A stretch of DNA of 48,707 nucleotides, counting the filler, from Bipalium vagum (lineage: Eukaryota): assembly GCA_037834085.1 (NCBI GenBank). It is 2 parts of 2 records of this genome, joined end to end, with 100 filler letters (N's around TTAATTAATTAA, not from the genome) between each part and the next. Parts side by side here need not be neighbours in the genome. Positions count along the whole stretch, not along the records: positions 24,237 to 48,707 come from JBBMKC010200830.1; 1 more part is not named here. One strand, given 5' to 3'. Each line of letters opens with the position of its first letter. The first letter of the stretch is position 1. This document shows positions 5,870 through 41,500 of this stretch, in pieces. The notes under the pieces are model-generated. The model made no database searches. It saw only the letters and a list, made by a program, of their open reading frames with translations, and was not told the DNA's origin. The position numbers and the translations under genes are program-made.

Positions 5870-6520
5870 AAAGCTTTCAAAAACATACTAGAAAAGCTGA
5901 TGTACATGAGAATTTAAAAGTGATATCACTGACATCGAAAACTAGAAATCGATGGATCTTCAAAAGCCATACACCAAAAGTGTTGCGAGCTAATGTCGTG
6001 TACCAGTTTACATGTCATGGATGTAATAATCTATAAATAGGAGAGACACAGCGTCATCTCAGAACACGCATTGGCGAGCATTCACAACCAAGCAGAACAA
6101 GCAAGGTGTTGGATCATTCAGTAAACTGTGGTGAAAGAAAGAGCAAAGTTAAAGAGAACGAATTCAGAATAATTATGGGAAACTTTAATAATAATGATGA
6201 ACGAAAGATCTAAGTCATTATCAATCAAAGAAAGGCAACTAAATATTAACATCCAAACGGAAGATAATAAGAACCAATGGATTGTTAATGTTTTCTGTGA
6301 TTAATTTTTTTTTAATTTTTATTTTTAAAAAATATATATTTTATCCAATAATAATCAAGAAAAATAATTTTTAATTTTTAAATACCGTTATTTAACGATT
6401 TAAAATGTAAATATCAAAAACATTGACTGTTGAAGAACTGAAAAATAAAAGTTTGAAACATGTTTCATAAAAATATATATTTGAATAAATTTTGTATTCA
6501 GTTAATAAAAGGCGAATAAT
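5870..6520 (+). mobile_element. Penelope-like retroelement 3' end: GIY-YIG endonuclease pseudogene plus 3' UTR/pLTR
   Basis: Translation FKSHTPKVLRANVVYQFTCHGCNNL*IGETQRHLRTRIGEHSQPSRTSKVLDH matches the VVY-x2-CxxC-YIGET-R-L-R-EH signature. The YIG tyrosine is mutated to TAA (6034-6036) and further stops follow. Confidence 0.88.
6423..6467 (+). ncRNA. Degenerate minimal hammerhead ribozyme in the Penelope 3' region
   Basis: ttga-CTGTTGA-A-GAACT(gaaaaataaa)AGTTT-GAAA-CATG-TT-tca. The core has an A6-to-U change. Paralogous to 28209-28244. Confidence 0.55.
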
Positions 6521-8399
6521 CGAAAAATAATTATATATTGTTCACAATATTAAGATTAATAATGATAATATTAAAATATCAACCTATGTATTAATAAATT
6601 TAAAATAGTATTTGTTAAAATTATATATATATAATTTAAAATTACGTTAATAAGCAAATATAAGAAATATAAATTTAAATATTTTTATCTATTGAAATAC
6701 TAATATTATCAAAATCTTTCACTAATAAAGATAAACTTTTATTACCAATTTTTATAAACTATTTTCATCGAAAAATCTAACATCCTGGTTTTTTGATAAA
6801 ATTCTGCAGTAAGCCAGACATTACTAACTTTTGATCTATTGCACAGATTTTAACAATCTATATATCATATTAAAGAAAATTTTATGTAGAATTATATTTT
6901 GACTCTTATTATATTTTAAAAGCTACTTTTTAAAACTCAGAACCTTCCTAATATCTTTTCTTTTATTAAATCTATTATTCAATACACAATTAGAGAAATA
7001 AAAATTTAATTTAATTAATAATAAATATTTAATTTGTCAATTTTCCTGAATCCTTTTTCAAATTAATTTTAATATTTAAAAATTCCGTTCTCTACTCCAA
7101 GGGTCACTTTTGTTTATCTAGTCTAAATAGATAATTATGTAACTAAGGAGTAATTTTAAATAATTTACGAAAATTAAGTAAATCTAGGATAAATAGGTAA
7201 AATTACGATAAAATCTATGTTTGATAAAATCTACGAAGTAAATCATTTTAAATTTTATTAATAAAATGCAGTAATTTTAAATTAACTATTTAAATCAATT
7301 AAATAACATTTTTAAATTTAATTTTAAAATACATAAATAATGAGATAATTTATGTATCAAATTTAATTTTAAAATTTAATTTTAAAATATAACAATTAAT
7401 ATATTTCTATCCATATATGAATTGAAGATAATTTTTTTCAATGAAAGCCAGTGTATCTAATTTTTGTTGGATCGAAATATTTTTAACAGCTCCATAAAAA
7501 TATGTGACATAAGCGATCTCAATTATAGTACAAAACGGTTGCAGTTCAAATTCAGATTATTCTGTTTGCCTTTCATTATTATTTTGCCCACGTGTAACTG
7601 GGTTAATTTGAAATCAATCTCCAGAAGACTTTGTTCATTTTAAACTATAACAATTGAATGAAGATAAGGAAATCTATTTAGTATTTTAAGAATTTTCCTA
7701 AACAAGCTGTCTTTTAAATTATAGTACGACCAAAGTAAACTGCTCATAGACATGGTTACCTCAAAAGTTATGCATAAAAACCTTTACTCTAAAATTCTTG
7801 CAGAACGGCATCAATAGGCAACACGGGATCCCATTTATAGATTATTCGCCGTTGACTGTTTTACGTTGTGAGTATATCGGAATTCCAATGAGATAGAATT
7901 AGGTAAAACTTCGACTTTGAAAACGTTTCAATTGGTTTTCCGCATTCTCACTTGTCTCAATTACTGAAATTGAAGTTCAATCCTAAGCAATTGATATCGC
8001 AATAAAAAATATTATTCCCGGCTTCCTTTAGAATCTCGTCGCTGATGTTCTGGTAATATTTAAGAACAAACCGATCTATTGTTGACAATTTTCACAGATC
8101 AACTGAAGCGGTAAAGGAAAGATCTCAGTTTCAGCTGAAAATCATGGGCAATTTAAAATTGGAAATTTCTTTTCATCAATAAGACGGAAATATCGATATC
8201 AAAATTTTGTCGGTAATTGTTGCATTTATTGCCTGTCTCATATAAGGACAGTTGAAATTTTTACATTTTTCAGTGGGAAACTTAGAACTAAAAATCAAAA
8301 GTGACTAAAATGTGACTACTTCATTGCTTCCAAGATGAGATCGCTTCCCTTTTGTTTCTTATTGTCAATTGATATATAGAGATTGATATTGTTTTCTAA

Positions 8400-8870
8400 T
8401 TCTGTAAGACTTAATCGAATATTAATAAACTTCATTGTATAATTTTTTGAGTTCTGCTTTTTTGAAGATATTTCATTTCGTCATTTAGTTTCTATTACAG
8501 CTGATTTATCTTCATTATCCGTTGAATAAATTTCTATTTCATTATCATTACAAAATTCTTCAAATGTTTTATAATAAAATTCAATACCTTTATCAACCCA
8601 AAGTTTTTCAGGTTTTCTTTGGTAGTCTAAATGTTTTATCTTAAGTATCAGTAATTGAATTTTCATTTTATTTTTAAAAGAACAACAAATGAATATATTG
8701 AAAAAAAATCTATTACGGTTGAAATAACCTTGACATCTCTTTCTCGTGGTACATGTGTAACTTTGTCTGAACGCATAAAAACTAAATCCAAATATCATTG
8801 TTGTTACCTTTACTTTTAAAAATGTTTAAGTTTCATGAATTCTTTATTAAAATATTTGCTAATATTTTAT
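8400..8870 (-). mobile_element. Polinton/Maverick-type rve integrase pseudogene
   Basis: Frameshifted pieces NNDIW / TVIDFFSIYSFVVLLKIK / RKPEKLWVDKGIEFYYKTFEEFCNDNEIEIYSTDNEDKSAVIE resemble the Polinton integrase D, D, E motifs (VIDxFSKY, LWxDKGxEFYN, YST..KAxxxER). Confidence 0.75.
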
Positions 8871-15148: not shown

Positions 15149-18100
15149 ATGGGCTGTGCGATGTCTTTAGACGAAAGAATTGCATTTAACAAGAGTAAAG
15201 ACATAGACAAAAAACTAAGAGAGGACGGACTGCAGTTGCAGAGAGATATAAAATTGTTGCTTTTAGGTAATGAAACTTGACGATTACTGACTGTGTCACA
15301 CGCATTTTGACGTTCTGTTACATTTTATTTCAGGTGCAGGAGAATCGGGCAAGAGTACAATTATGAAACAGATGAAGTAATGATTTTAACCTTTCATTCT
15401 AAAATCTCTAAACTCTCATTTCTACTATTTTATCTATTTTTTCACAGAATTATCCATGAGGGTGGTTTCACATCATCTGACAACCACCAGTACAAACCCA
15501 TTGTGTATAGCAACACGATCCAATCGATTGCTGCCATTCTCAGAGCCATGCATAAGTTGAACATCGCTTTTGAGAATCCAGCAAGAGAGGTAAATTCAAT
15601 ATCCTTTTCTTTTATTTTTATTGATTTGGAAATATTTCTATTGTCAAGGAGGATGAGATCATCATCACTACAGCGCTGTCGACAATGAAAGATCTTGAAC
15701 CGTTCAGTCCGCAAATGTCTCTAGCTCTGAAGCTGCTGTGGTCCGACCTTGGTGTCCAGGAGTGTTTTCACCGGTCCAACGAGTATCCGCTCAACGATTC
15801 GGCGCTTTAGTAATATTTATATTTTATTATTATTATGTTTTTTCTTTCTTTTAAATAAACGATTTGGTGCTTTTGAATGAACAATAATTATTGATTATTT
15901 ATTTAAGAATAATTTATTGATCTTTATACATTATTTCATTGTTCATCTCAGCTTTGATTGTTTAATTATGGATTCAAATTTCAATCAAAAATTCTCATAA
16001 TAATTTCTAAATGATTTGCGTCTGTGGAATGTACGCAGAGAAATGGACTTTGGTGAAATGAACTGTCATTTGTGACTGTTTATTACATGTGAGATTGTGT
16101 TGTGTTCTATTGACGTCTTTCTGTTTTGACTTGTGGACCTTTGTCCCTTTGAGACATTAAGTGATTTCAAGTTAATCGTTGACCGTTTTCAGTTTCCTGG
16201 ACAATATCGATCGCATCTCTGCTGCCGATTACCGACCCACTGATCAGGATATTTTGCGAACCAGGATCAAAACCACGGGCATTGTGGAGATTCAGTTCAA
16301 GTTCAAAAACATGAACTTTAAGTACGGTTTTTTTTGTCCCAGACCTCTCCTCTGAAGTCTTTCAATTTCAGAATCTTTGATGTCGGAGGTCAGCGGTCCG
16401 AGAGAAAGAAGTGGATCCACTGCTTCGAAGATGTTACGGCAGTCATTTTTTGTGTATCACTCAGTGAATACGACCAAGTGCTTGTAGAGGACGAAACCAC
16501 AGTAATTTTTCTTGTTTTTTATGCTTATCAGATATTTTTTGATTATTTTTCTAAAGTAAATTCTTTTCGTTTAAAAATTGCTATTATTGCATTATTTAAA
16601 CAAATCAATGACCTTGGAATACTAATTAAAGCGTTTTAAACTTTCTTAATTAATTTAGTATTTATTCATTAATAACGGTGGATGGAACTGTTAAATTAAA
16701 AAAATAATATTGACAATAAAGAGATTGAAGAAAAGATCACTATTTCTCACTAGTAAATCCTTGGTATTGTATTGCTTAAGCCTTCCTTCTCTGCCTCACT
16801 GGATTTTTAGTACGAAACAAAAGTTGAAACAATAAAAACTACTGTTTTACTTTTTAATATTATTCCGTTGTGAACAAAGTTAATTTTTGTTGATTATTTG
16901 CCTCAAATTCCAATGAGAATTGATGAAGACTCACAATTTTGAAGATTTACTAAAACAAAACAATTCTAAAGATGATTTTAAATCCATTTGAAAATTTTTT
17001 TCTCGTTCACTCTGTAAAGGGATTGTCATCTTTTGTCTATCAAAAAATTGTTCACCAACTTCACAGATCCATTTCCACTCAACCAAATCGTGTTTTTTGA
17101 AATTTTTTTCTTATTTGAGTATTTTAACAATCATGAACGAAATGCTTGATTAAAACATCATTATTTCGACAACGAAAAGATTGGAGAAATTGAAAAAGGA
17201 TCATCATTTCTCTGTTTTCGGTCGTCAATGTCTTTTTTCACATAGATCGTCATCCCGTTGGCCATTTGGATTCCAAAAAGAACAATACTAAGAACATCTT
17301 TCTTTGTCTTCTACACGACAGTATGACAGTTGAAAGGAATAATGATCCATTTTTTGAAAATATTGATTTTATAATGATTTAAATTTTAATTAATTTTAAC
17401 ATTAATTCGTTTGAATTTTTTCCCCAATCGTTCATTTTCGTCAGTCAATTGTAATAAATGGAATTTTTTAGTGAAACCCCACAATTCTGTCGAGAATAAA
17501 CTGTTAAATTGGTTTTAAATGGATATTTAATTTTTGCTCTTTGACTTTGTAAAGAATTTATGATCCGTTAACGTTTAAGCAAGATTTCACTAAAAGTCCT
17601 ATCACCTCAAAAATAAACCATAGTATTTTCATTAATTTTGAACACTTTCGACCATGTCTTTTTATGGTTTTGAAAGGGTCCTGAACAAATAGCGAAGAAG
17701 GGACTTTCTCTCTGGAAATCATTTCGTGATTCTCATTCTAATTAAAACAGTTGTGACTGATGATTTTTGTCGAGGTCTATCATTATTATTATTATTATCT
17801 GTTATCATTAATGACAGTTGACGATTTTGTTTTGAATTCAGTCATAGGATTGAAAATTTTGCGCTTTTTTTGTTCTTTTTGATCATTATTTTACATGTTC
17901 GATTTAAAGCTTTAACTGAGTCGAGGGATTTAAACCAATGATTCTTTTCTATGGAAAGGGAAACCTTTTTTGGAACTATTGATTTATTCAAAATAATATT
18001 TTCCACTCGTCATTGATTATGAACAGTTTTCAATGAGGACCGATTGTCACTTGAATAATTTGTTGTCAATTCCAGAATCGAATGCAAGAGTCTCTGTTTC

Positions 18101-20276
18101 TCTTTGAGTCGGTCTGTAACAATATATGGTTTGTAAATACGAGCTTCATTCTTTTTCTCAACAAGAAAGATCTCTTCCTCGAAAAGCTCCAAAGAACTCC
18201 TATCACAGACTGCTTTCCAGAATACACAGGTATACCGAATTATTGATTGTTATTTGAACCTTTCATATCTCGCCTTCAGTCCAGATTTTCATTATTAAAA
18301 AAATACACTAAAATCGATACATTGAATATAGAAAATTAATAATAAACTAAAAAAATATTCATTTGTTAATCGATTGTTTTCATAAATTAAATTTTTGATG
18401 ATGATTTTTTAAAGTTTAAAACATCGATTAAAAAAAAGAGAAAATGATTAAATTTGATTTTTTTATTTAAAGATTTTTTATCAGACAAGAATTTTAATTT
18501 GGCTAATCCGATGCCACAGAAAAAATCGAAAATTTCTTTGAGAAAATATCCACATTTGATTGATCGGCTGAAACAAAGTGATAAAAACTGTCAAAAATGT
18601 CTATTTTTATTTATTATGGAATATTTTAGTTGGAAATTTTAATATTTTTTTTTATTGATTTTCGTTAAAGATTTTTAATCATTCACAATTTTGATTTTTA
18701 AAATTAATTTATAGATTAATTTAATAATATCAATGTCATCTTGTTATTTTATCATTTATTATAATAAGTATTTTTCATTCTTATATTTATATTTTTATCT
18801 TTTAATTTTGATTTGTTATTTAAATTTTTTTAAATAAATTAAAATTTTTAAATTAATTTATTTATCTCCATTTATTTCGTAAATTATTTTTTAAAAATAT
18901 ATTAATTTATTTTATTATAATAATAATAATAATAATTATTATTATAATTATTAATTATTTTATTATATAATATATAATTATTTATTATTTTAATTTTTAT
19001 TAAATCATCTTCCTCGTTTTTATTTGCTTTCTTTAATTTTTAATATTTCCATTTTTAGTTATATTAATTAAATTACTTTTCTCACTTTTTAGGATTTATT
19101 TTAATCCTTTTATCTTTTTAATTTTTTAATTTTTTTCTTTATTGTTTTATTTTTTTCGACAATTAACGATTTATGCCTTCTTTATTTTATAATTTTAAAA
19201 ATGAATATTTTTAAATTTTTTAACCATGTGCAATTTATTACATACATCAGTGAAAAGAATGTTCGGTTCGTTTTTAATTTATTCCTTTTTATATTGTGGA
19301 AGGTTATTATTAGTTATTATTTATTTAAATTTTGGAAGGTTTTTCTTTACAGTTTTTAAATTCTTAAATTGCAAATCGATAAACAATTATATTACAATGA
19401 GATTTTAATGAAAAATATTTATCAATTAATTTATATTCAATAATGTCTCTGACAGTTTTAGAGAACTTCGATTTCCGCCGTGCCAGATATAATTTAAATT
19501 TTCTTTTTATGTAAATATTTGTTTTATTTATTAATTGTTATTTTTAAAGTAATTAATTGATGATATATAANNNNNNNNNNNNNNNNNNNNNNNNNNNNNN
19601 NNNNNNNNNNNNNNNNNNNNNNNNNNNNNNNNNNNNNNNNNNNNNNNNNNNNNNNNNNNNNNNNNNNNNNNNNNNNNNNNNNNNNNNNNNNNNNNNNNNN
19701 NNNNNNNNNNNNNNNNNNNNNNNNNNNNNNNNNNNNNNNNNNNNNNNNNNNNNNNNNNNNNNNNNNNNNNNNNNNNNNNNNNNNNNNNNNNNNNNNNNNT
19801 ATTTCCTAATTCATAAGTCAAAATTGTCCAATTAAATTATGTTAATATATATTTAATAAAATTTTAATTATAAAATTAATTTAATTAATCATTTTAAAAG
19901 ACTTTCCTTTAAAAATGACCTTGGAAATTTGTGATTAATCAATACATTGATATTTTAATTTTAAAATATTATCTTTTCTTATCATTTTTGTTTTACTCTT
20001 CCTCATTCATTTTTACCGCAACGAGAAAGTGAATCTTACATTCACCAATTGTGAAATCTCCTTTCTTTCTCACTCTTTATCTTTCCAGGTCCCCAGGAAT
20101 ATGATGCCAGTGTTAGTTATATAGAGCAGTGCTTTCGAAGCAAGAACAAATACGTCAACAAGGAGGTCTACTGTCACCACACATGTGCAACGGACACGAG
20201 CAACATTCAATTTGTTTTCGATGCAGTCACAGATTTAATTATTTCCAACAATTTGCGTGGTTGCGGACTGTATTGA
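15149..20276 (+). CDS. GNAO1: Heterotrimeric G protein alpha-o subunit, 8 exons, 354 aa
   Basis: Exons 15149-15266, 15334-15376, 15448-15589, 15649-15809, 16193-16321, 16372-16501, 18076-18229, 20089-20276, all GT-AG, total 1065 nt. Motifs: MGC start, [40 protein letters not shown], and the Go-type C-terminus [15 protein letters not shown] at 20401. Confidence 0.96.
19571..19799. other. Assembly gap (N run) inside G-alpha-o intron 7
   Basis: 229 Ns within extremely AT-rich low-complexity intron sequence. Confidence 0.98.
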
Positions 20277-23014: not shown

Positions 23015-24050
23015 TATTAAGTTGAATCATAAGTTCCTTTGTTTTTTAAATATGTTTTTGTCCCAGTTCTGGTTGTATTTAGAATAATATCATGAATCTT
23101 TTGAAAGCTGATTATTCATTGTGTATAATTTTGTTTTACTGAAATAATTCTGAGATATATGGAAAAGGTGTCATAAGCGCGCGGACAGGTCAGAAATGAT
23201 TTGGATCATTTAAGAGGGATAAATTCTCATTACAAAACCAAATACGTTCCAGGTAGTCTACTGACATGGTTGAGAGGCATTTAAATGCACTTTTAAAAGA
23301 CAATGAACGACAAACGCATGCGTGAGTTGGCCGTTCAAATGAAATGCAACCAAATCTGTCGTCAGTTAAAATCAATGGGCAAAGGTTAAATGATGGGAAT
23401 GTGGATACCGCTTCAGTTGTCAGAAAACAAAAAAAAAACTATCGCTTCACAATTTCGGCATATTTGCTTGGCGTCATAGAGCCACTCATGGTCACAATGC
23501 AAGATTTCTCCATCGGATTGTCACTGGAGATGAGAAGTTTTGTCTAAGTAAGTCACCTAAAAAAGAAACAATGGGTAAACAAAAGCGAACCAGCAACATA
23601 TCAAGTTAAGAAAGATCTTCATGTTCGCAATCAGTGATCAGTGTGTGGTGAGACTGAAAGGATCTCATTTATTTTGAAATGTTCACATCTGAACCAAGTT
23701 ATATCAAGCGACCTGATCACCAAAGGTTAATAATTTTGCAGCACGACAACACCCGACCACAGAGTCAAGACCTGACTCCTTCAGATTTTCATCTTCTTTC
23801 GCTTTCTAATCAAATACGCGACTTAATATTCAACAATAATGGGGATCTAAAGGATTGGCTTGAGAATTACTTTGATTCTAGACAAACACAATTTTGGCAA
23901 AACGGCTCAACAAATCGGTACAACGATGGGAAAAAGATGTAAATGATGGTGGACAATACGTGAATAATTGATCTTTGTCTTTATTTCTGGTTGAATATTA
24001 TTGGCTAATAATTGATTAAAAAAATAACGAACTTATGCTTCAACCTAATA
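23015..24050 (+). mobile_element. Near full-length, internally deleted mariner element with both TIRs and TA target duplication
   Basis: Left end tattaagttgaatcataagttc (23015) and right end gaacttatgcttcaacctaata (24050) are inverted repeats. Internal fragments read IYGKGVISARTGQK*F, RFLHRIVTGDEK, IILQHDNTRP, DLTPSDFHL and WLENYFDS. Confidence 0.93.
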
Positions 24051-24236: not shown

Positions 24237-25093
24237 GTCGCTATGATATACCTGGAGAATCAGTGCCAACCAAATTATCGTCGATGTCTGAATGGAGAAT
24301 GCCAACCATCTGGAAAGTTTTGTGATGGAATAAAGGACTGTTCGGATGGGTCGGATGAAATCCAGGCTATATGCAGTAATGACAAGCTTCATTATATTTG
24401 CATTCATATATGTTTTTGACAGATAAATGTGATCCTCTCATTAGAAAATGTGAATACTTTCGAAACAAAGCACCAATTAAACCTTCCTATCTTGCTCACT
24501 GGAAGTGTGATGGTGAAAATGATTGTGGAAATAAGTTTGACGAAGCAAAATGTTCTGGTAGATATTAATTATGAAGAATGATTTTCTGAAAAATCATTTA
24601 CCGTTTTAGAAGAAGATTTCAGGTGTGGAAATTTACAGTTTACATGTAGAAACGGGAAGAAGATTCCCAGAGCATATCAGTGTGATAAGGTCATTGACTG
24701 TCCGAATCAAGAAGATGAGATGGGTTGCGGTATTTCTTATTTGTGGTATTTGGTATTATTATAAAATTATTGGTCTTACCAGTATTGCCACAAATAATCG
24801 CATTTAATGGAAAGAAAATAAAAAAAGTGCGGAAAGGAGAAGACATCGAACTGAAATGTGAAGCTTTTGGAAATCCAAAACCCTTTGTTTTATGGAGACA
24901 TAACTGGGGTTGCTTAAGAGATCCATCAAGAATGACAGTGACAAGTTTCCTGCAAAGCTGTAAAAAGGTCATCAGCACATTGAAAATTAAAAATTTCCAG
25001 CCTGGCGATGATGGAATTTATAACTGCGAAACACTGAGCAACGAAAATAGGAGTTTCTCTGAAGACTACCAACTGATAATGGAATCCATTTAA
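24237..25093 (+). CDS. 5'-partial LDL-receptor class A x3 + Ig domain protein (perlecan domain II-like, short)
   Basis: Exons <24237-24375, 24423-24557, 24610-24729, 24783-25093, with phase-1 GT-AG introns of 47-53 nt. LDLa motifs [44 protein letters not shown]. The Ig domain [18 protein letters not shown]...DDGIYNCE resembles perlecan Ig1 (WRLNWG). Stop at 25093, AATAAA at about 25159. Confidence 0.88.
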
Positions 25094-25560: not shown

Positions 25561-27204
25561 CTAAATAATTACAAAATAATGATATGTCCAATACTTTACC
25601 GTTCATTTCGACCGCTGCATTTTTAATTTTATTCATTTATTTGCAGGACTTTCCGGATGATTTAATACGAATATTAGACCATACACAAAAATGAAATTTT
25701 ATTTTGGATGTAAATGAGAATTATTTTCCAAGACGTTTTAAGTTTTACTTTTTCCAAAAGGCAAATTCTCTGCTCATCATAATAAAGTATTAAAATAAAT
25801 AATGATCCCACTAGATTGGGACTACACTAAACCTTGTTTAATATCTAATTCTACTTTTTAATGTTTTCTAATGTAATTCTTAAAAAATTGTTTTGGATTC
25901 CCGTCACCCCTTGTATTCATCCCAGATAAATTGAATGCTTTTCGAAATCTCGATGAAATTCTAGTACCGTTACTGTTATATATACTAATGGAAACACTTC
26001 CATGAAGTAGTTTTCAACATATAATGCGAGACCGCATACGACCAGTATAACAACAAAAGAATCACAAGCGGAAACAATAACTTGAATATTTTTGTGAATA
26101 TAATTCAATGTTACATGTATAACAATGCTTTAGTAAGAACGTTTATATTCAATTAACTTTCCATAAAGATCTTTAAAAGAATTTCAATTTCATTACCAGT
26201 TACCAAAGGAAAATAATGTACTTTTTATCTTTCAAAAGTATTGTTCTAAATTTATTGTACATGAATGAGGAAATAAATCTATTTCATAAAGATACCTTTG
26301 TTCGAATCTTTGTTAAACCCACGTTAATTAAAATAAAATTCAATAATAAAAATAATTAATTTGCTTTTTGTTTTAATTTTTTTAATTTTGTTTTAATTTA
26401 TTTAAAAAAATATTTAACTTTCCAGCAGACATATTTATATATAAAAATGATTCTCTCATTTACCAACATTTACAATGTGTCCATAATTTGATAACTTTTA
26501 TATGAAACACACACGTGAAGGATACATATATATTTTAATCTCTGAGAGACTCAGTATTTGCGATATTTTGTTATATTAAAACAATTCAAGCCACAAATTT
26601 TGTTTTAAAATTTTTCGTCTATCATTTTATATTATCAAATAATGTTGGCAGTCAAATATAACAGAATGGGAATCTTGAGAGTCATTTCACTTCAAAATGA
26701 CTCTAAAAACGCCTACAAATGTAAACATTAAAACTTGTGGAATACTTCTTAGTAATAATTAAATCAAAATAGAGATGCCATTATGTTGTTTACTTTACAC
26801 GTTATGAATATTTATTTACGGCATTATTAGTCTTAATAACAACCCTTACCATCTCCCGAAGTTTTATTTAGTCAAGCTTTCAATTGCCATAACATTTTGG
26901 TGTTATAAAATAAAATTTTGATAACAATAATAAAGTTCGAATTTGTTTTAATGTTATATTGTGTGGTCAACACTTAATTTTTCAGATAATCTGATCATTA
27001 TCCGGAAGCTATTGACTTTTAAATTCTAATATTATTTTCTGGTTTCAAAATATTTAATCTTTTATATATTTCTAATTCCCTTTTTAATAAAATTTGTTGT
27101 CCTATGCAAACTCAAAAAAAGCTTTCCAATTTATTTAATAATGAAATGAGTTTGCACATTTTTAGTATTCATAATTATATAAGGTATATATATATGTGTG
27201 TGTA

Positions 27205-27848
27205 TACATGGTGCGTCAGCTATTTGAGGACAAAAATTGATATTAAAGGTAAGTAATATATTTAATGAAAAGATATAATATATTTACTTTAAAGCAATAT
27301 TAGAAACTTTATTTGTTTTAAGTTCATAAGTTTTATTTATTCAATAAAATCGCTTTCGGTGTCAATTACAGCTTCAAGACGGCCTCTGAAAAGCTTATAA
27401 GCCACGATCAAATGGTTTTTGTTCATATTTATCATAGCAGAACTTATAAAAGCCCTTAATGAATCTTTGGTATTGTGAAGATGTTTGCTCGTCTCCTTCT
27501 CTACTATAACATAACAAAATTAACATTTCTGACAATGTCTGAAAGTGTGGAATTTGTTTTTCTTTTAGATGTAGAGGAAGCATCTCGATCAGATGCCAAA
27601 CATTCCTTTCTAATTTTATTGACAAACGATCTACCACATTAAGAAATTTCTGTCACTGTGTCCAGCAGCTAATGCAACAATAACTACATGCCTTTTCATT
27701 TCTTGTGTTAAATCAAAAGTTATCTCTTCCATTTATAAATTAAAAACTAATTATTTAATGTTGTATCAATAAATATTGCAAATCGATTTTAGCGCCACTA
27801 AAAACAATTTTAACATATTTTGTCCTCCAATGGCTGACGCACCCTGTA
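27205..27848 (-). mobile_element. Internally deleted DD37D (maT-type) Tc1/mariner element with TIRs
   Basis: TIRs ta-catggtgcgtcagctatttgaggacaaaa and ttttgtcctccaatggctgacgcaccctg-ta. N-terminal relic MEEITFDLTQEMKRHVVIVALAAGHSD and C-terminal relic VEKETSKHLHNTKDSLRAFI...FRGRLEAVIDTESDFIE*. The catalytic middle is missing. Confidence 0.88.
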
Positions 27849-28204
27849 TATATAAACTTGGCTGAAATAAGACATAGTCTGCACTTTACTACCATTTGTT
27901 TAAATATATATTAAAAATTTATTATAAAATACAAAAAGTAAATTGTTTTTTCCATATTGAACTGTCGTTTTGTATTTTTGTAATTGCATTTTGAACAAGA
28001 GAAATGTCCTGGAAAAAAACCTTTTCAACCAAATATACTAACCATCCAATTTTTGAAAAATCATCATACTTTTATAGTTGGTATATTCATCATCTCAAGT
28101 GATATATTATTTTTTTTTAAAAAGAGAAAAAAATTTTTACAAAATATTTAAATTAAAAATTAGACCGACGTTTAGATAAAAAAAGTGTGTTGTTTTAAAT
28201 ATGA

Positions 28205-28246
28205 TTGACTGATGATGAACTGATAATAGTTCGAAACATGTTTCTT
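28205..28246 (+). ncRNA. Minimal type-I hammerhead ribozyme (Penelope-type)
   Basis: CTGATGA (28209-15), T, stem II GAACT/gataat/AGTTC, GAAA, palindromic CATG, then TT (GUU cleavage triplet). Stem I is weak (2 bp). The flanks resemble the Penelope 3' region at 6.2-6.5 kb. Confidence 0.68.
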
Positions 28247-29981
28247 GATAATAAATGTTTGGAAAAAATTTGTTCAAAACTATTGAAATGCGTCTATTTA
28301 AAAAATAAATTGATATATTATTATTGATAATTATAATATAATGCTAATAATTGATGTTATATTTCTATAATAATTTTCATAACATTAAATAAAAAATCTA
28401 CGTATTTCTTCATTTTATTTTAATCATTTAAGATAAATTTAAAGATTTAGCTTATTAAGACATTAGTTTAAACAAGTTTTGGTTGCTAGGTACAGACTGT
28501 GCTACAATAGCTCCAGTAAGACTTATTAATGTTTATCCATGCAAAATTTTATTGTTAAACAGAGTATTCCTATAAAAATCTCCTTAATCTTATAATAAAA
28601 AAGAGCCTTGCCCTAGACTACAAATGTGTAAGAAAAATTATAAAAAACCTAGAGTTATTTAATTTAATTAAATAAAAAAGATTCACAATTAACAGTGAAA
28701 TGCATATATCCCGAGTTTGCTATAAATTTAAGAAAAATATATAATGGTAAGATAAAGTTACTAGTTTTATTATCTCAATAAAAAATTGGAAATAGTAGCC
28801 TTATGTTACCAATATAAATACTAATAAAAGATGAAATTGTATAAAATCTGGAAGGAAAATGTGAAAATATAATATTTGTCAATATCAAAAAGTTTATCAT
28901 TTTTTTATTCTTTAGATTTAGTATGACTACTAAATAAGGGAACTTTTACTTGAGAGCCCTTGAGATTAGAACAGCGAAGATCATTGTTCTTTCTTTTCTA
29001 ATCTCTTTCCGAATAATCTTTTCAAAGTTATTAAAATCGTAAAAGCCTGTAAAGTAGTATAAAATATTTTATATTAATATATTTTTTTAAATCCATTTTG
29101 CTATTTGATCATTTCATTCTAATTTTAATTCAAGTAATAGTAAAGACTTTTTTGAAGTAAATTTCGGACAAATGCCCTATACAAATCCTTTTATACAAAA
29201 TACCTATTAATGTACACTTTTGTTTTAAGATTCGAAAATGTGATTACTTTCATTTTCTAATATTTCAATGGACAAAAATGATAATCAATAATAGTATTGG
29301 TTGAAGAAGATCTGAAGCATGTTTTAAAAATCTATGAATAAAATTTTGTACTTTCAGAATTGTCTGCTAAGGAATGTATTTTAGAAAAATGTACTTTTGC
29401 ATCATGAAACTTTCAGCTAAGTGAAAATGAGCTTCAACAGTTATTATGAATTTCACAACATTTGGACCTCTCATCGGATTAGTCTAACTAGGAATTAGAA
29501 TACTTTAACCAGCTGTATAAAGATTTCATTCTTAAAACTGTTTTTAAGAAAAAGTATGTTTTCAATTGTAAACACTGGGCATCATCCCAAAGGATCATTT
29601 CCTGTCAGGTTCAATTCTGGTACCCAATGTTATGGAACTAAAACTTTTAACAGGCTTTAGCACCTGTGATTCTACAAAATTTTCAGATATCTGAAAAGTT
29701 ACAATCCCCCTTTTCCTTCATATCTTTTTTGTCTGGGTCGTGAATTTCCTCTTGTCATCACAAAAAATTGAAAATATTAAATTCAAAAGATAAAAGATCC
29801 CTTGATATTTTAGCTTTTAATGATAATCGTAATATTAATAATCCCTAATTCACTCAAACCAAAATTACTACAGTGCTATATTAATTGATAACATAACATA
29901 ATTCAAATGTACTGTTGTTCTATTCTATTAAAAGGTCTCTGTGGTTTCTAATAAAATCAGAAAAGAAATTATCTATACATT

Positions 29982-32900
29982 TTATCGCTTTTTCGACTGT
30001 AACACTGCAGAGGTTGTAAAATCATTTACGCCATCTTTAACTTCTTGCTCTTTTTTGCGAACAGTGCCCATCACCTTATGGTGTAACTCTGCTCTAGTAA
30101 AAGGCCGCAGATCTTTTGTAACATCGGTTTCTAAAATTAATTATATATTTATACTTGTTTATGATCATAACAAGAATGTGCCTTCATCGAAATCATCAGT
30201 AACAACGGGTACTTTAACACTCGGATTGGCTACCGGCATAGTTAGACCACTGCCAATAAGAACAGACTTTGGTTCAAAAATTGCTTCGTTGTCATGAAGG
30301 GCAATGAAATTCCTCAACAATAACAATTCGTTTACACGATTTTCTATGGTACTTAAATAAATGAGAATCGAGTGGGTCTGTGGTCCTTTTGGACCAAGCA
30401 ATTTATCTAATTGACACCTGAACATGTTTTCATTTATGAATAGAATAACCAATGATTATAACTAGAACAAAATTTAAACGGATATTAATTTTCACCGGGG
30501 TCTTTTTCAAAGATATTAAGACAATAATAATAAAAGCAGAGAAATTGTATCACAACAATAAACATTTAACATTTGTATCACAACAAGATAATGCTATAAG
30601 GCAAAACTATTTATAGATTTATTTAAATTTTACATATTATATTAGGTTATATTATGGTGGTTTATTTGACTTCATTTTTCGGCTAAAAGTCTTAATATTA
30701 ATATGATTACCCGTTGTTTTTATTTTATGCCGAGCTAAATGAGCGCTGCAATGTCCCACTTCTCAGTCATAAAGGCTTCTTCATTTTCTTGTATAATTTT
30801 ACCCAACTGTAATTTCCGTTCTATTTTCAATGCTGTTAATGTTTTATGCTGTCTTTCTCCAATGTTTATTTGTCTTCCAAATTTTGCCTCAATATTGCAA
30901 ATAAATGGTTTTACTCTGGCTTCTATTTTGTGTATCGGCACTTTCGAAATAAAATGTTCCTGCTTTACACAAAACCAAATTGTCTACACCTCCTATCAGA
31001 TCAGGGGTAACATTTTTTACAACAATAAAATTAATTTCTGCTTGTCTGCCTTCTATTACGACATTTACTGACAGTTTCCCGTGGTATCTAATGCGTTGTC
31101 ATTTGCACACCGTAATCTGTTTAGCTGACCATATAAATCCATCATGTATCATCTATTACTCACCTCAAAACTGTTTCTTCTTATAAATCTGTATACTTTT
31201 TTCGTCCACACTGTCATCTTCTTTTACATCCAGTGCATCCTGGGAATAATCACTGACGTAACTGAATTGATGGCTCCCACTAGCTCCCACTATCTTTTGG
31301 GTGTTTCTCATCTTCAGGTATATTACTAAATTGAATAAACTTTCTTCGTGTGTTTCTATGGCATTCATTCTGTTAAAACTTACTCTGTTTCTTGTTCTCT
31401 CAGACTTCTAGATTGGTATCTATGTAAATCGAATTGTGCATAGCATTCTAACGTATAATGTCCATGTTTTTTTGTATTTTAAACTGACAACATTGGGACA
31501 TATTCTTCTAATATGATCAGGTTTTTGCACGCGAAACATTTTCTTTGAGGACATTTTCTACTTAAATGTCTCATTTTGTTGCAAGACCAACAAACAATAT
31601 CACTTTGGTCTCTTCGCCTGTTAATACTATCGTAGTTGCCTGTCATGTGTCTTGATCCTGCAAAATTCTTCAATACTGTGTGGTGTTCCGGGACCTTTGT
31701 TATCTATACCATCTTCATTTTATTCTGCACTGTATTCTTCTTGACAGCATCACTGTAATTTATGACAACATTGATTTTCTCGTTTCTCTTTTTAATAATT
31801 ATTTCCATTTTTTCACCAGAGCTTCAATATCATCCATATTTTTTAGTTTCCTCATTTCTACTTCCCGATTCATTTCTTCATCATTCACGCAGTGTAATAA
31901 CTTTCTTGATATTAAATTTTCATCTGTGGTTTGATGCGCCAACGCCTTTTTCACTTTCTCCTTTATTATCTTCACAAATGATTGAATATCTTCGTTTCCT
32001 CTTCTGTATTGTAATAGGTTTTCCCAATCTGTGAATCATCTTCACCGGTTCTGCAAAGACTAGTCGCAATCTAGCTTCGAACCCATCTGCTTTTAAAGCT
32101 GTTTTCTCATAATCTTCAATGAGGTCTTCGTCAATCATGGCGTCGATCATGCTTTCTTTGACCTTTTTGATTTTTCTAATAAATCAAAATACCTTAGACA
32201 TTGACAAATAAATATTTCGATGTTTTCGCCTTTTTGCAGAATTTTGGGTAACAGTCTTCCAGTCAGTGGATCTACTGGTGTAGTTAACATGTTAATCTGT
32301 TCAGTATTATCGAGAAGAAATTTCATAATACAAAAATATATTTCAAAAACAATGCTTTTCGTCCGTGTTCTGATTATTAAAACAATAATCATCAATAAAT
32401 TTAATTATTTCCATTACAGTGAGTATTTGAGTAATTGAGTTGTAAGAAAATTTTAAATTGAAGAAGTGTAATCATTAATTGTAGTTTCAAATACACTACT
32501 TTATATATTAATCCCAAAGCAAGACAACTTATAAATCCCGACTTAATAAAATCAAATTTTTTAAAGACTTTTCCCAAGAGGACATTTTCAAATTCTCAAA
32601 ATAAGTAATAATCAGTAAGAGATAGGCCAATGAGTTTTGTTGGAAAAGGGTGAATATTATATTCAAGTTTATTCATTTTTGCAAAGGTGGTTTTGCTACA
32701 CGTGCTTTGGTGCTGTCATGCAGAAAAGTTCGACTTTTTGTTGGAAATCGATGAGAGATTATTAATTTAAAATTTTTTAAAGCATGCAAGTGTTAACTAC
32801 TTAGATTTCTCTCACATTATGACTGCTTTTAGAATATTGAGTAATATTTTCTTTGACTCAAAAGTATTTCTGGAATTTTTTATTTTGGTAATAAATTTTA

Positions 32901-35900
32901 TAATTTCTGAAAAACACGAAATAATTTAGTACAATTAAGGTAAGTGCGGTGGTTTAATATCACAATGCAAGCGTTTGGATGAAGGAAGTGGATTTTGAGA
33001 TCTATGGAGAGTAGCATCCTCCAAGTGTTTTGTCTCTGAATTACTTCTAGGCTCAAATGGTCGAATGAACTTTTAAGATTTATAAATGACATTTAAAGTG
33101 TTAATATTTTAAAATTTTAATTAATTATCATTATTATGTATTTGATGAATAAAGTTTGTTATCTACTAGTTATTTTTTAAAATTTTTTAAATGCCATATT
33201 TTAATAATTTATACCATTTTTATATTTTTACTGAATAAATGCCATTTTTAAATTGCCCTAGTTATCAACGTCAGGCATATAAGAAATCTGTTTTAAACGG
33301 TTCCGGATAGCTTACCTGTTTTTTGAAAAAAAAACCCAAATCTGATAGTGAAATTTCTTTGGACAATGATGTTCTACGGAAGCTTATTGAAGATTTGAAG
33401 TCGAATAAGCAAGAAATGACAAGCAATCTTGGAGCTAGTTTTAAGGATCATTTTTAAAGAAAAATATAATACTAAGTGAGAATCAAAAAATGTGATGAAT
33501 ATAGTTAGCCATAAAACGACCCATATTTTATCAATCGATTAATAAAGAAAATTAATCAATATTAATTATATGCAATTAATTACTGATACCTCTCACAGCC
33601 AATCTTTTCAAACATGATGCGAACCTTTTCAACAATTTCTGCTATACAATCATTTGTGACTTTTAAATTACTTTCATTGGTTTCAACCAGTTCCAACAGA
33701 TCTTTCTTTTTGGATTCGAACTCCTGGATCCTTTCATAATGATGATAATCCGATTTGTTTGAATTCTTTTCCAATTTGCTGATCTCATTTTTGATCTACA
33801 CATATCATGAAGTAAACAAAGGGAAAAAAGATGGAAAGAACGAGAGAAGATTAATACAAGTGCTCACTTTTGTCACTTCGTCTGCCAAATTGTCCATTTC
33901 CGAATTCAATTCTGCCACATAATTGAATAGGGCATAATTTCGATCTTCTTTCTGAATAAAGGTATCCACTAATTTGTCAATGTCATGCTGACCACTTAAC
34001 TCGAGCATTTGATCAAATGCTTTTTCATAGGCCTCAATTGAATTGGCTACAGCCATGGCTTTTTCTTCAACTTCCTTTGCTCGTTTCGCCTAATAGATAC
34101 ACTCGAGGTGAAGCACATTTTCATTGATATTTTAAAAAGCCTTTGATTTCATTACATGAAGATTTTATATTGGGAAATTATCATACTCCGTAATTAAAGC
34201 ACTACACTTTCTAACAATTCAAACTTGTTTATATTTTGATTCAAAGATGATATCCTTTATTATTAGATTTTCTTTCAATGTCAAAAATTGTTTGCTAAGT
34301 AAATATTGGTAGAAGTCTCTCAATGTAATTCTGTTTATTAATTTTTTTTCAATATAAGAGCTTCCTATGAAATTTTTTTTCATTTACACAACCTTCCTAA
34401 GTGACCTGTGAATTTCTTTTTACAAAATATTATATTTAGTTTAAATTTGATTTGCTCCGATTTTTATGTATGATCCTTTGAAAAACAGAATAAACCTAAT
34501 CTCACTGCACAATAACATCTGAACCTGTTTTCGAAGGGTGTACGTCGCCCAATATTCCGTCAATAGCTTGGTCTGTAAGTAATTTCAAAGATCCTCACTA
34601 AAGTGGCCAAATGGTTTCGGTTAAGTATTAATTCAGTACAAATTTAGTATTTATTTAATTCATTATTTATTTAGTACAGCCCAAAAAATAACAATAAATT
34701 GTTTCATATCTTTAGTTTCTTCAAAAAATCACCAATACTTTCCTGCAACTGCAATATTTTTGAGTTTAACTAAAAATAGGGGTCTGTCGTAATTATTAAT
34801 TTCCATTTCATTTAATAATTTTGATTCCAAATCAATAATAGTTTATAAGCTCTAAATTATTTCATGTTAAGTTCCGTTATTGAAAAAGAAGTAGAATCTT
34901 TTAGAACTTTAGATATTTAATAACTTATAACAATTTTTATTCACAATTTTTATGGTAAAAAAATTATCAAACATTTTTAAAATAAATTTTCTTTTTATAA
35001 TAAAATTAAAGAAAAACCTTCCAAGCAGTTAATTGAGGATCTTCCTGTCTTTCCAGTGCTTTATTGCTCATAAAGGTTTTCAATTTTCTATCATGATCTA
35101 TAATTCTGACCAGCTCCTTCATTTCTAAATTGTGCTGGGCCAGATCTTTGTCGCATTTCTCGGTGATTTGTAGCATTTTCGTGTGAGCTTCTTCCCTGAA
35201 TTGTAACAAATTAAAATTTTTTGATATTTTGGTAATATTAATATAATAGATTTGTGAATTAATTCGGCTCGTTTTTATGCCAATTAATTATTGAATATTT
35301 TTAGCAATAATTTTGAATTTTTTTAGTTTGGAAATATTTACTAACAAACTTTTTGAATTGTAACAATAATTGATTAACTCAATTAAAAATTTCAAAATTT
35401 GAACAGCACAAGGAACATTTCCGAGTGTGCTCATTTTCTGCTTCCATTTTGGAAATGACACAGCTGAAGCTAATCGACTTCTCATAGAAGTTTATAGTGA
35501 AATTGCTCCGCACGATAAATCATGCAGAGAATAGTTTAAGCGTTTCTGGTTGGCCGATTTCAGTGTCCATGACATGCCTCATTCAGAACAAGTTTTAGTA
35601 CCATGAATTACTCATGTTAATCAGTGAAGATCTGTGTCAATCACATAATGAACTCTCGGAAAATATTGACAAAAGAACAATTTCTGTGCGTTTGGTAGCT
35701 ATGGGAAAGAAACGTGGAGAGGCGGATATCAATGTGTGAATTTTGTTTGAAAGGGAAAAATATGTTTTTGCACCGTATTTTGATTACAGAAGAAAATTAA
35801 ATATACCTCAGTAATACTAAATAAAGAAAATCTATATTTGATCCCACGCAATTGTCCAAATAAACACCGAGTTAAAATATTCTATGCAAAGAAAATGTTA

Positions 35901-37004
35901 AAGTAAAATAGATGTCTTTTTTTCAATAAAAGAACTGAACAGTTTTTCAACATTATAAAGCAAAGTCGATTTATTAATAACTGTCTTTTGGTTGAAAACA
36001 AATAGGGTGTAATAAAAGTCTGGAAACAGTGAGTAAACATTTTTCAAGTTTAAATTGAAAGGAATCGGGAAATACTTTAATTAACCTATTTCTAAATAAC
36101 ATTTAATATATTTTTGTTTAGTTAGATAAAATATTTTAGAGAATAAAATGCTTTTAGGTTTCGTCTTGTTATCGAACTTTCTAAACAACACCTTTGGTCA
36201 TAAGCTGCAGTCGATGTTTCTATAGTATTGCTAATTTCCTGACGAAGTTTTGTCAAAGTCTGGTCGAGTTTCTTGTACATTAAATCGAATCGCGCTCTTT
36301 CCATGCGTAAAGTATCGATTTCTTCTCTCAGCACTAAAATTTATAACCAAATATCCAATGGTAATCATCTGTCAAAGGTAACCTGCGTTTGATCCCAATA
36401 TTTCATTGTACCGTTTTAATGCGTGTGACAACCGACTTTGTAATGTTTTCATCTTCTTTGCCGACTTCACTGACATTTCCTGGCCAATATTTGAACCACC
36501 TGTTGATTTTTGGAGATTTTTTAGTTTTCTCTCAATTTCTTTGATCTGCAAAATACCAATATGAATTCTAAATCGATTTATTCCTCATTAGATAATGCTT
36601 AATGATACCTTGCTGTCCAATTCATCGTGAATGGCCTTTTCCTCATCTATTTGTTCCTTTAACCAATCTTTGTTATCTCCCAAATTTGCAAGATCTTCAC
36701 AGTTTTTTTCATCTTTCAACTGGTTTGATTTGCTGTCTGCAATTCTGAGACTGGTTAACAAATCTTCCTTTTCCTTTTCTAATTCTTCGATATAATTTCT
36801 AAATAATATTTTCTAATATTATATCTTCTACTGGTTATCAAGATACTTTAATTTAAAAATGGCTTGATGCATTTCCTCGATATATCGAACACGATCGGTT
36901 TGAGCAAGCCTAAGCTGCTGAGAAAGAATTTGGTATTCATGTTCTTTTTCTGCTAACCCCTCTTCTAATTCATGTACTTCACCTTTTTTACCTGCTAGTG
37001 GCAT
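29982..37004 (-). CDS. CCDC63/ODAD1: Outer dynein arm docking complex subunit (CCDC63/CCDC114-ODAD1, DC2 family), 9 exons, about 547 aa
   Basis: Exons 37004-36847, 36798-36609, 36545-36383, 36333-36192, 35195-35018, 34089-33868, 33795-33590, 30417-30182, 30130-29982 (1644 nt, frame consistent). Coiled-coil with family motifs LREEIDTLRMER, STAAYDQREEA, EMKELVRIIDHDRKLKTFM, FIQKEDRNYALFNYV and RPFTRAEL. Confidence 0.9.
30650..32330 (-). mobile_element. Decayed Ty3/gypsy LTR-retrotransposon gag-protease-RT-start relic in CCDC63 intron 7
   Basis: Gag-like LPKILQKGENIEIFICQCLRYF; CCHC knuckles CWSCNKMRHLSRKC and CFACK..DHIRRIC, plus a decayed third (..KHGHYTLEC); retropepsin pieces LRCAND and FIVVKNVTPDLIGGVD; RT lead-in EAFMTEKWDI. 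Many frameshifts. Confidence 0.78.
35390..35900 (+). mobile_element. mariner (Mos1/mauritiana-like) N-terminal remnant in CCDC63 intron 4
   Basis: SKFEQHKEHFR/LIFCFHFGNDTAEANRLLIEVYSEIAPHDKSCRE*FKRFWLADFSVHD resembles the Mos1 N-terminus (LIFCFHLKKTAAESHRMLVEAFGE...WFQRFKSGDFDVDD). Confidence 0.82.
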
Positions 37005-37309
37005 AGCTTAAGAAAAACGTTTACAAGATTTTGATAATTAATGGATTTGAAAATTAGAAAGTTTTAAATTTCACAACCACGATAAATTATACCAATATTA
37101 TATATTCATTTAGATTTATTTAAACAATGATTAATTAAAATAATCATATTTGTTAATTAACATTTCATTAGATATGTTAAGTTCCTAATAAAATTAAAGT
37201 TTGGAGCTAAAAAGAATTAGTACTTCACAGCAAGGTTGCTTATTAATGAATGAAAATAACAAATTCAAATTTATTTTTATATTATTAAAGCAAAATTGCT
37301 TACATGTAT

Positions 37310-38579: not shown

Positions 38580-41500
38580 AATTTTCGAAGACGGGTTTCA
38601 GTTACAGAAGCAATCAGACAATTATTGCATGGAAAAGAATTCAATTTTGGAAATGGAAACTGCAAAATTTAACGTAATTCATTCATCTGAAATATCAAAA
38701 GTTTTACGGGAATTAACTCAGTGCATTGCAAATGACCAGGATTTATTTTTAAATAGTAACAAACCATCACAAAGTACGGGGAGTAGTTCTTTCAACAGTT
38801 GGGTATTTTAGTTTTCGAGAATTTGTTGATATTCAGAAAACGAAAACATTAAACAAGAATATTTAGATAACACTGAAATGATCAAACCGGAATCATTAAA
38901 ATCAACTTCTGCAAATACTTCCAGCAGCTCATCCACAGTTCCGAATGGGAAATCTGTTGAAGACAAACACATTTGTCAGCAATGCGGGAAACAGTTCAGC
39001 AAAAGAGATTTCCTTCAGAAACATAAAATCGTTCATGAAATCCCTCGTCACAAATGTGTGGCATGTGATAAAAGTTTCGTTCGCGAAGATAAGTTAAAAC
39101 GACACTTCACAAGCATTCACTCAAAACATAGGCCGCACATTTGTGAAATGTGCTCCAAGGCCTTTGCACGAAAGTAAATTGGATCGTTTTTATTCGGAAT
39201 ATTTCCAATGGCACTTTTTTCAGAGACAAATTAAAGGACCACCAGAAGCACCACTTAACGGCCGGAAATAGTTTCCAGTGCACCGAGTGTAATGTTCCGT
39301 TTGTACAGAAATCAGATCTCAATCGCCATTTTCGAGGCATTCACAAAGGGGAAGTAGGAGTGGGAATCAATATTCCCTCGAAAAGTAGAATTATTTTTAT
39401 TAAATCTTTATTTTCAATTTTAATACATTTTTATTGATTATCGATAATATCAAAGTTGTTTCTTTTACGATATCTTATACTTCAGTTCTGAGCTATTTAT
39501 AATATTCAATTATTCATGTCCACTGTCACCCTTGTTAAATTTTTTGAACCACTTTTGAGCATTTCTTATGGACACTGATTTGTCGCCTTCAACTTCAAAT
39601 ATTTTCTTTGCAGCATCTATGGCTCTGAAATTCTGATTCCAGTAATGTTTCAGAAGTATAGAGATTGATAATTTATCCATGCTCTTTTCTGAATAAATAT
39701 AAATACACAATTAAAAGTATCCTACGCGTCTCTTTCTCAGCTTTCAAATGGTGTGCAACTTGATAATATTTAAACATAATATTTTGAAAATTTTCTTTTA
39801 AAGTTTAAAAAACACACGAACTTATGAGTCAACCCAATAAAATGTTTTAGCAGTTTTCGTGGAGTGTTTCGAAGTATAATTTATCTCGATTTTTTTCATT
39901 TTTTACATTAATAAAGTCATTAATTTTTATAAATTAATTTTGTTTTAATAGTAAAAATTACATTTGAAAAAGTATGTAGAACATTTATTTAATAAACTGA
40001 TTTCAAAATGTCCATATTTTATTATCGTAAACTAAAAAATGCTACCAAATCTACAGCAGGATTTACTAATAAAAGATTTTTCAACTTTTAGTTTTATGGG
40101 ATTAGAACAATATAATTCATTATGACCAGTAATAAAACAATTAACGATGTTTCTATGGTCATCAAATAGGCGAACTGAAGTATTTATTGACCAATAAATA
40201 TTAAGAAATAGTTAATCGAAAAAGAATTGCATTTCGCCATGATAACCCAGAATTAGTGTAACATTAATTGTACTTACAAAATATTAAGAATTTGAATGCG
40301 ATGTTTCAGATCGCGTTGCATATTTTTCGGATATTGTACTTTCAGATTACCATCTTTTCTGTTATTTGCAGAATAATTAACCAGGACATGGTAAATCACC
40401 TGGTAAAGTATTTCATTTAGCAGTCCAATTATTTTTACTGATGGTATCACGATTATCGAGCATAATGGTGAATATATTGTTCAATAAATTTTTGGAAAAA
40501 AAACTCCACATTTTTTAATATACATCTTTCTTCACCATTCATTGTTATTTTTTAAATTTTCATCGAGTTTTGTTTTATTGTAATCTTGTCAATCGTCTCT
40601 TTGTGTTCGCCTTTCATCGGTTCGTCATTTTACCAGTCTTCGGCTTGGTAGGGATGCGCTGTGAGAAATTAACATGAAGGAAATTTACTTAATTCTGCCC
40701 TTCATCGGCTGAGCAGGTTTTCGTCCCCTAATTCATCATACCAAAACAACAAACTAACTTGTATCAACAAACACTTTACATTATCTGACTCTAGAGGTTG
40801 TATTTCCTAACTCCCCCCGCATATCATCCTTTCGTATATTCAGAGAAGAAACCCATATGCCTCAAACTCAAAACAAACAAAATATGAGGCGTGTACCATT
40901 TAAAAACTCAAACTAAAAAATATAATTTTAAAAATTTTCAAAAAAAGTTTAACTTAAAAATTTATTATTTGCGCAAAAAGTTATAAATATTATCACAAAG
41001 GAGCTATTTTAAAAACAAGTGCTATATATTGTTTGTGAAGTTTAATATTGACAATGGCGATCTGAAAGATAGCTTAAATTCGGTCTGAATCAGATAAATC
41101 AATTGCTGCGTTATCATTGAAGAGGATAAAAAATTTGATTTTTCATTGTTCATCTTATTAATTGATGTCATTCTTTGAATATACAAGGTGTCATTTAGGT
41201 ATTTTTACAATATTTGAGTAAATATCAAACGAGCATCTCCGTAAAACTTATCAGTTTTTATATAAAAACAAAGACATACACAACATATTACAAATTAAAA
41301 TATTACATGTTAACATAAACGTGGAAATAGTTCTGAGAGATAAATTGAAAATTAGTCTGGGGATGTAGCCCAGCGGTCAGAGCAGTGCATGCGCATGTGA
41401 AGGTCAGGTCCCGGGTTCGAATCCCGGTATCTCCGATTAATTTTCACTAACAAGTTCAACTAAATATTCAAAGATTCATTACAATAAATTTAGGGTTCTA

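Follow-up and report, generated by a model that had tools for sequence, protein, structure and literature searches.

The window analysed here, a stretch of 48,707 nucleotides of Bipalium vagum made up of two parts joined by filler letters, contains close to 28 kb a 199-bp insert which probably represents the 3' end of a Penelope-like element (PLE), either a 5'-truncated copy or a solo pLTR, with a minimal hammerhead of the dimer type that probably persists as a silent passenger. The hammerhead motif itself, at 28209-28242, is genuine, and belongs to the minimal type I hammerheads in which helix III is palindromic. An initial annotation had already claimed a truncated or non-autonomous copy of a dispersed, Penelope-derived hammerhead family. 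This claim is supported by evidence other than that originally invoked, because a sister hammerhead lies behind an ORF relic at 6 kb, the 3' parts of both copies are homologous, a 12-bp repeat surrounds the insert, and the depth profile marks its limits. Neither the sister hammerhead nor the direct repeat had been indicated before, and the extent formerly given (28020-28300) has to be corrected to that in Table 1.

Table 1. Features of the two hammerhead copies in the window and of one related metagenome locus.
Feature	Position	Strand	Description
12-bp direct repeat, left copy	28100-28111	.	Perfect; likely target-site duplication
Insert	28112-28310	+	199 bp, 20% G+C; likely 5'-truncated Penelope-like 3' end, solo-pLTR-sized, without ORF or tail; aligns to 6339-6532
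Stem I	28207-28208 with 28243-28244	+	2 bp; 5' strand given first
Hammerhead core C3-A9	28209-28215	+	CTGATGA, exact, read letter by letter
Extra T (U)	28216	+	Between A9 and G10.1, unpaired
Stem II	28217-28232	+	G10.1-C11.1 (G28217-C28232), five Watson-Crick pairs plus closing G.U, 4-nt loop
G12-A15.1	28233-28236	+	GAAA
Palindrome	28233-28244	+	Perfect, 12 nt; spans G12-A15.1, helix III, H17 and the stem I 3' strand
Helix III	28236-28241	+	Palindromic, 6 nt
CATG	28237-28240	+	T16.1 follows at 28241
H17	28242	+	U (T in DNA); GUU site, predicted cut right after
Stop-free frame	28238-28310	+	24 codons, opened by an ATG within helix III; could be where the ORF of the element starts, unproven; chance 0.07
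12-bp direct repeat, right copy	28311-28322	.	Perfect
Candidate 10-bp target-site duplication	5758-5767 and 6558-6567	.	Left and right of the relic; weak
Penelope-like ORF relic	5768-6304	+	5'-truncated; linker and GIY-YIG endonuclease, one stop, two frame changes; last stop 6302
Sister hammerhead	6424-6467 (motif 6427-6464)	+	A6 read as U, extra A, G.U at 10.1-11.1, 3-bp stem I
3' extension	6533-6557	+	25 nt, only in the relic, not in the 28-kb copy; likely optional PLE tail
Metagenome locus L002	720-1245		Penelope-like endonuclease end, then hammerhead with identical 12-nt palindrome

The sequence at 28209-28242 presents an intact core (CUGANGA, GAAA and NUH), with a long helix II (6 bp) and a short helix I (2 bp). 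The letters claimed in the initial annotation for the core, the extra U after A9 and the very short helix III inside a perfect palindrome were confirmed and lie above chance, and its stem I of about 2 bp was also recovered. Stem II had been described as having 5 bp; the five Watson-Crick pairs are present, and the closing G.U pair and a loop of 4 nt have to be added to that description. A descriptor composed after the motif was known, requiring the exact core, a stem II of at least 4 bp, a palindromic helix III, H17 and a stem I of at least 2 bp, detected a single site on both strands of the window, with 0.0033 expected per window from 300 block-wise dinucleotide shuffles; when one core mismatch was allowed, two sites appeared versus 0.10 expected. 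GUU figures among the cleavable triplets in the available part of PMC3138052. The comparison with Rfam hammerhead models proposed earlier gave no match, either at E<=5 in the window or at E<=10 in 28100-28400 (301 bases). In folding calculations the energy of the monomer is ordinary (z -0.4 to -1.0), and stem II reaches a pair probability of 0.71-0.88 in two folding windows and of 0.07-0.14 in two others, being lost in two of the four. Helix III, with pair probabilities of 0.00-0.11, is too short to close within one motif.

Minimal type I hammerheads with a palindromic helix III have been described in the pLTRs of metazoan PLEs (Cervera and De la Pena 2014, PMC4209133), mostly as single dispersed copies. 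As far as the accessible part of that paper goes, the 28-kb motif shares with its consensus the core, the unpaired nucleotide between 9 and 10.1, the pair G10.1-C11.1, the long helix II, the palindromic 15.2-16.2 plus loop 3, the NUH triplet and the short helix I. A 2-bp helix I is found there (Fig. S3) in PLE hammerheads of Drosophila virilis, Culex and Oikopleura, and the Oikopleura row is built like the 28-kb motif, with a 2-bp helix I, U17, and a helix III of one pair plus a 2-nt AU insert. The 28-kb sequence family was not encountered among the rows of that figure in a rough comparison made on a PDF whose columns were lost. Every structural feature of the motif is already present in the 2014 consensus, as available in PMC4209133, and the sequence family is an addition to the published class; its meaning is mostly one of annotation, as one more sequence family of Penelope hammerheads.

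The limits of the insert are given by its flanks and by its abundance. The 12-mer of the direct repeat occurs only twice in the whole window, and the repeat was equalled in 3 of 3000 trials of a matched null (30 of 3000 at AT-rich sites); it is likely a target-site duplication. The summed contig depth over 28142-28311 ranges from 54,708 to 159,208, with its maximum on the hammerhead core, these values reflecting the contigs of one sequencing run, possibly the source of the window itself, and not a copy number. Neighbouring, single-copy-like bins outside the insert show depths of 25-85, and the resulting ratio, above 2000, marks the insert as a very abundant repeat. At its right edge the depth drops from 94,328 to 633 between adjacent bins, and loose ends accumulate at 28311/28314, a point with which the right copy of the 12-bp repeat coincides. 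Three single contigs connect the insert stretch with its opposite strand, as inverted pLTR junctions would, although this indication is weak. No tandem copy of the insert exists at this locus, the two window copies standing 21.8 kb apart and not adjacent. A covariance model trained on both of them, for which the scores of its own copies are circular, detected no third copy in the window (next match E 0.13).

Variation within the family was taken from the contig-depth table of the same run. None of the 40 differences listed in it falls in the core boxes, and 18 are situated in the flanks within the insert, several of them at 12-35% of depth. Positions 28217 (G10.1, G>A) and 28242 (H17, to A, still NUH) each vary at about 1% of depth, and no compensatory change of stem II appears among the 40, the only change being that at 28217. 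At 28205 the 28-kb copy is unlike 99.7% of the depth (75 contigs), in which the prevailing letter could pair with 28246; at 28245, a letter able to pair with 28206 is carried by 35% of the depth. Since these letters would pair, many members of the family likely possess a stem I of 3-4 bp, and the 28-kb copy likely has the weakest form of the family, with a rare change that breaks a further pair. The suggestion that this copy may be inactive on account of its 2-bp stem I has therefore to be divided: a 2-bp helix I is a published form, whereas the further pair broken at 28205 speaks in favour of inactivity.

The sister hammerhead is located 125 nt behind the stop of the relic at 6302, and conserves the stem II letters of the 28-kb motif, with a longer loop, and an identical 12-nt palindrome. 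Both window copies are about 70% identical over 150 nt, a divergence that may correspond to different subfamilies, with 38 of 43 aligned positions conserved in the ribozyme and 42 of 64 downstream. The alignment of core plus downstream part was reached by none of 300 shuffles, and that of the downstream (3') part alone by 1 of 500 under composition-aware scoring; the latter is reached by 200 of 1000 shuffles when flat scoring is applied to a longer window. The protein encoded by the relic has 1261 relatives at E<=0.001 and matches the C-termini of its long homologues, even though its own Pfam match to GIY-YIG (E 0.013) is below the cut-off. RVT_1 was found upstream in all six long homologues scanned (about 800 aa), one of which also showed GIY-YIG. 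Judging by these protein comparisons, the layout of the relic is that of a PLE with a C-terminal endonuclease. A word-based protein search retrieved no longer relative, nor was a viral locus found for a full-length homologue. It is this single relic at 6 kb that links the high-depth family to an ORF.

Other similarities between the two loci that the initial annotation had put forward did not hold. The letters of the upstream flank match (28026-28049 versus 6236-6256) exist, but they lie outside the insert, in a region of near single-copy depth, and are not above chance: 22 of 1000 shuffles reach the match in narrow 150-nt windows, 53 of 500 and 177 of 500 do so when the scoring takes composition into account, and among 1740 window tiles it occupies approximately the 100th place. 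The second flank match, between part of 28112-28203 and 6300-6421, is at chance level (266 of 500 shuffles). Two further candidates in this region were discarded, namely 28026-28049 as the end of a PLE ORF, which a profile of homologue C-termini places outside the top 25 of 4866 tiles and whose DNA match is at chance level, and an older decayed hammerhead near 28460, equalled by 321 of 500 shuffles.

Related motifs were searched for in metagenomes and viruses with a pattern in which nothing but the core, the 2-bp stem I and the palindrome was fixed. It matched 32 metagenome loci in 14 families, of which six showed the 1-nt insert, G10.1-C11.1 and a stem II of at least 4 bp, versus 0.11 expected when the middle part is shuffled, and the other eight failed. 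By the same test, none of 16 viral loci (11 families of their own, plus two loci belonging to a non-hammerhead metagenome family) was hammerhead-like, and a strict pattern with the stem II of the 28-kb motif itself gave no metagenome match. In one of the six families, the L002 group, the hammerhead follows, at a distance of 240-480 nt, a homologous endonuclease encoded on the same strand; for the other five, no same-strand endonuclease was found within 1.2 kb. A position in the pLTR, behind a PLE ORF, is seen for the hammerheads of the sister copy and of L002, the 28-kb copy being devoid of an ORF. Across families, both partners of the pair 10.2-11.2 are changed in 5 of the 10 rows of an alignment of metagenome and window copies, which were chosen for having stems and share the search pattern, a choice that favours covariation. 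Six metagenome loci (L008, L011, L012, L017, L023 and L032) constitute one dispersed hammerhead family with a 2-bp stem I, in which only about 60-115 nt around the core (approximately -24 to +58..+92) are common to its members; no ORF match was found near them.

How such copies may have originated can be proposed by analogy with other PLEs. According to the available parts of the corresponding reports, the Penelope protein introduces a nick into AT-rich DNA; it then initiates reverse transcription downstream of the ribozyme, where two internal sites can serve as the start (PMC11167929), and the choice of the start generates 5'-truncated copies with or without a tail (PMC11167929, PMC3846280). 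Transferring this mechanism from those two sources to the window, the endonuclease of the element would have nicked an AT-rich target site, and reverse transcription would have begun 68 nt downstream of the ribozyme cut site in the 28-kb copy, and 93 nt downstream of it, with the tail included, in the relic at 6 kb. At 28 kb it would then have halted before reaching the ORF, which lay some 40 nt further on, and the duplication would have remained. The copies do end 68 and 93 nt behind the cut site on their 3' side, these two ends, 25 nt apart, being known from the two window copies only, and on their 5' side in the untranslated part (28 kb) and in the ORF (6 kb). In addition, the 25-nt extension of the relic is similar to the loose ends seen behind 28311 in other copies. 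A short duplication in an AT-rich target is present at 28 kb (12 bp); the 6-kb candidate is weak, with 28 of 1500 null trials reaching it (100 of 1500 at AT-rich sites) and seven occurrences of its 10-mer in the window. One copy is pLTR-sized and lacks the tail, the other bears the endonuclease and has the tail, and this clean pair is consistent with an internal start of reverse transcription.

With regard to cleavage, the structural model predicts that the single motif would be unable to close helix III, whose loop would have 2 nt, and that cleavage would need two copies for this reason. If two motifs are available, such as those of a tandem Penelope transcript, their 6-nt palindromes would pair with each other and the cut would fall after U28242. 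Dimer cleavage had been proposed for the hammerheads of PMC4209133, in the available part of which single motifs are described as inactive and multimers as weak, and was reported for these variants by Lunse et al. 2016 (through the accessible part of the review PMC6765202). In the 28-kb motif, U17 and the GA/UC of stem I would extend the palindromic pairing to 12 bp, burying G12-A14. The minimum free energy of the dimer is -25.4 kcal/mol with this 12-bp duplex versus -9.0 kcal/mol with the active topology, in a nearest-neighbour calculation that ignores the non-canonical contacts of the core, and the duplexes themselves contribute -14.0 (12-bp) versus -4.6 (active). As the 12-bp duplex would bury G12-A14, cleavage would be slow, and would likely need the protein of the element as a chaperone. 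This predicted lock agrees with the protein dependence reported in the accessible part of PMC11167929 for PAc, the Poseidon element of Anolis carolinensis. Standing alone, without a partner in cis, and having a weakened stem I, the 28-kb copy is expected to cut only rarely, and is most likely silent.

PAc (Frangieh et al. 2024), as far as PMC11167929 was available, is similar to the present family in having a pLTR hammerhead, two 3' ends with an optional tail, and an AT-rich target. Its ribozyme cleaves only with the protein and is dispensable for insertion in vitro, which its ribozyme mutants did not impair, and no RNA-seq ends at the cut site are reported in that part of the paper; the 28-kb copy, in contrast, is known from its sequence. 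The solo pLTRs of Penelope elements of Adineta vaga (PMC3846280, in its available part) are also alike, with 181-218 bp, duplications of 8-10 bp and an optional 31-bp tail. Unlike them, the 28-kb locus has a duplication of 12 bp and lacks an inverted pLTR, and the tail at 6 kb measures about 25 nt. A family that is young, highly abundant and endowed with a strong 12-bp palindrome could serve for testing protein-assisted dimer cleavage, for which a single locus is insufficient.

It has to be noted that helix III contains an ATG (28238-28240), two bases before the predicted cut. The same frame remains open for 37 codons in the L002 family; it is interrupted by one stop in the sister copy and soon closed in other families, and shows no third-position bias; moreover, the 24-codon frame did not match the N-termini of six long homologues. 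It has been considered that this ATG could act as the start codon, the palindromic duplex being an off state until the protein of the element refolds the RNAs, and the cut removing the ATG and converting the mRNA into a substrate for transposition or decay. We regard this proposal as rather unlikely; if true, the palindrome would be a switch tying translation to cleavage. In PAc, a cut 26 nt behind the start codon has already been reported (PMC11167929, available part), whereas the possible ATG of the 28-kb copy would stand just before the predicted cut, and a limited literature search revealed no previous description of a helix III that contains the start codon.

Several other readings of the insert have to be weighed against that of a truncated copy or solo pLTR. 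Instead of a set of random 5' truncations, the high-copy family could constitute a short, dedicated element of about 200-230 bp, SINE-like, derived from a pLTR and non-autonomous, for which the Penelope enzyme would be borrowed. Depth exceeds 54,000 inside the insert and is lower than 100 just upstream, the insert is as large as a pLTR and is accompanied by a duplication of its own, the L008 group shares only the surroundings of the core with no ORF nearby, and non-autonomous families derived from pLTRs have been described (bioRxiv 10.64898/2026.07.22.740005, accessible part). However, the upstream drop in depth is expected in any case, given that the 28-kb copy ends there and the repeat at that edge was excluded from the profile; some contigs continue upstream beyond the insert, and the sister copy does carry an ORF. 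We consider this possibility improbable.

Much less probable is that the insert corresponds to the monomer of a non-LTR retrozyme, that is, of a tandem repeat with a type I hammerhead and a circular RNA. The metazoan retrozymes, in the available parts of PMC7229834 and bioRxiv 10.64898/2026.07.22.740005, resemble it in their type I hammerhead, short non-coding unit and PLE-related origin, its low G+C content and a unit within the 150-450 bp range (PMC7229834) are compatible with them, and monomers of retrozyme families exist (bioRxiv 10.64898/2026.07.22.740005). Yet they are defined by tandem units, while the insert, flanked by direct repeats, consists of one unit with a minimal motif; as none are present, the 28-kb locus is not a retrozyme, and the term "retrozyme-like" of the initial annotation has to be abandoned, taking also into account the PLE-type motif without a canonical helix I. 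Besides, no head-to-tail joint is listed in the contigs, which show presence and not absence, and the homologue lies behind a PLE ORF. A chance resemblance within AT-rich DNA, or a small RNA of the C/D-box type, is the reading to which the least credit can be given, close to none. The folding energy of the monomer, not unusual, would suit the former, and weak Rfam matches to SNORD113 (E 0.14) and snoZ247 would suit the latter; nevertheless, 0.0033 sites are expected per window, a second copy exists in the expected place, the duplication and the repeat depth accompany the motif, and the snoRNA scores (20 and 13 bits) are below the cut-offs of 36 and 38, for which reason a snoRNA identity was rejected. 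A 5'-truncated copy or solo pLTR of a PLE remains the preferred reading.

The rest of the window contains other mobile and genic sequences. At 27196-27857, inverted repeats of 47 nt (81% complementary) surround a broken minus-strand ORF with no Pfam match, with very high depth at 27700-27870, which we take to be a relic of the Tc1/mariner type. Fragments at 23394-23942 (+), lacking a Pfam match, resemble a mariner transposase by their motif; broken frames with a zinc knuckle (Pfam E 0.0035) at 30700-32400 (-) are presumably a relic of an LTR retrotransposon, and a fragment at 8481-8825 (-) is similar to an integrase core (rve E 0.043). An uninterrupted frame of 1190 codons occupies 469-4041 (+), with 40-46% G+C, above the rest of the window; no Pfam family was assigned to it and its Atlas matches are all below 0.8. 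A tRNA-like sequence at 41358-41436 (+) (Rfam 40 bits, anticodon undefined) is possibly a pseudogene or a tRNA-derived repeat. Among cellular genes, exons encoding three LDL-receptor class A domains and an Ig domain were located at 24237-25093 (+), with a stop at 25093, G-protein alpha exons near 16322-16639 and 20055-20276, and exons of an ODAD1-like (outer dynein arm docking) gene at 33580-37007 (-).
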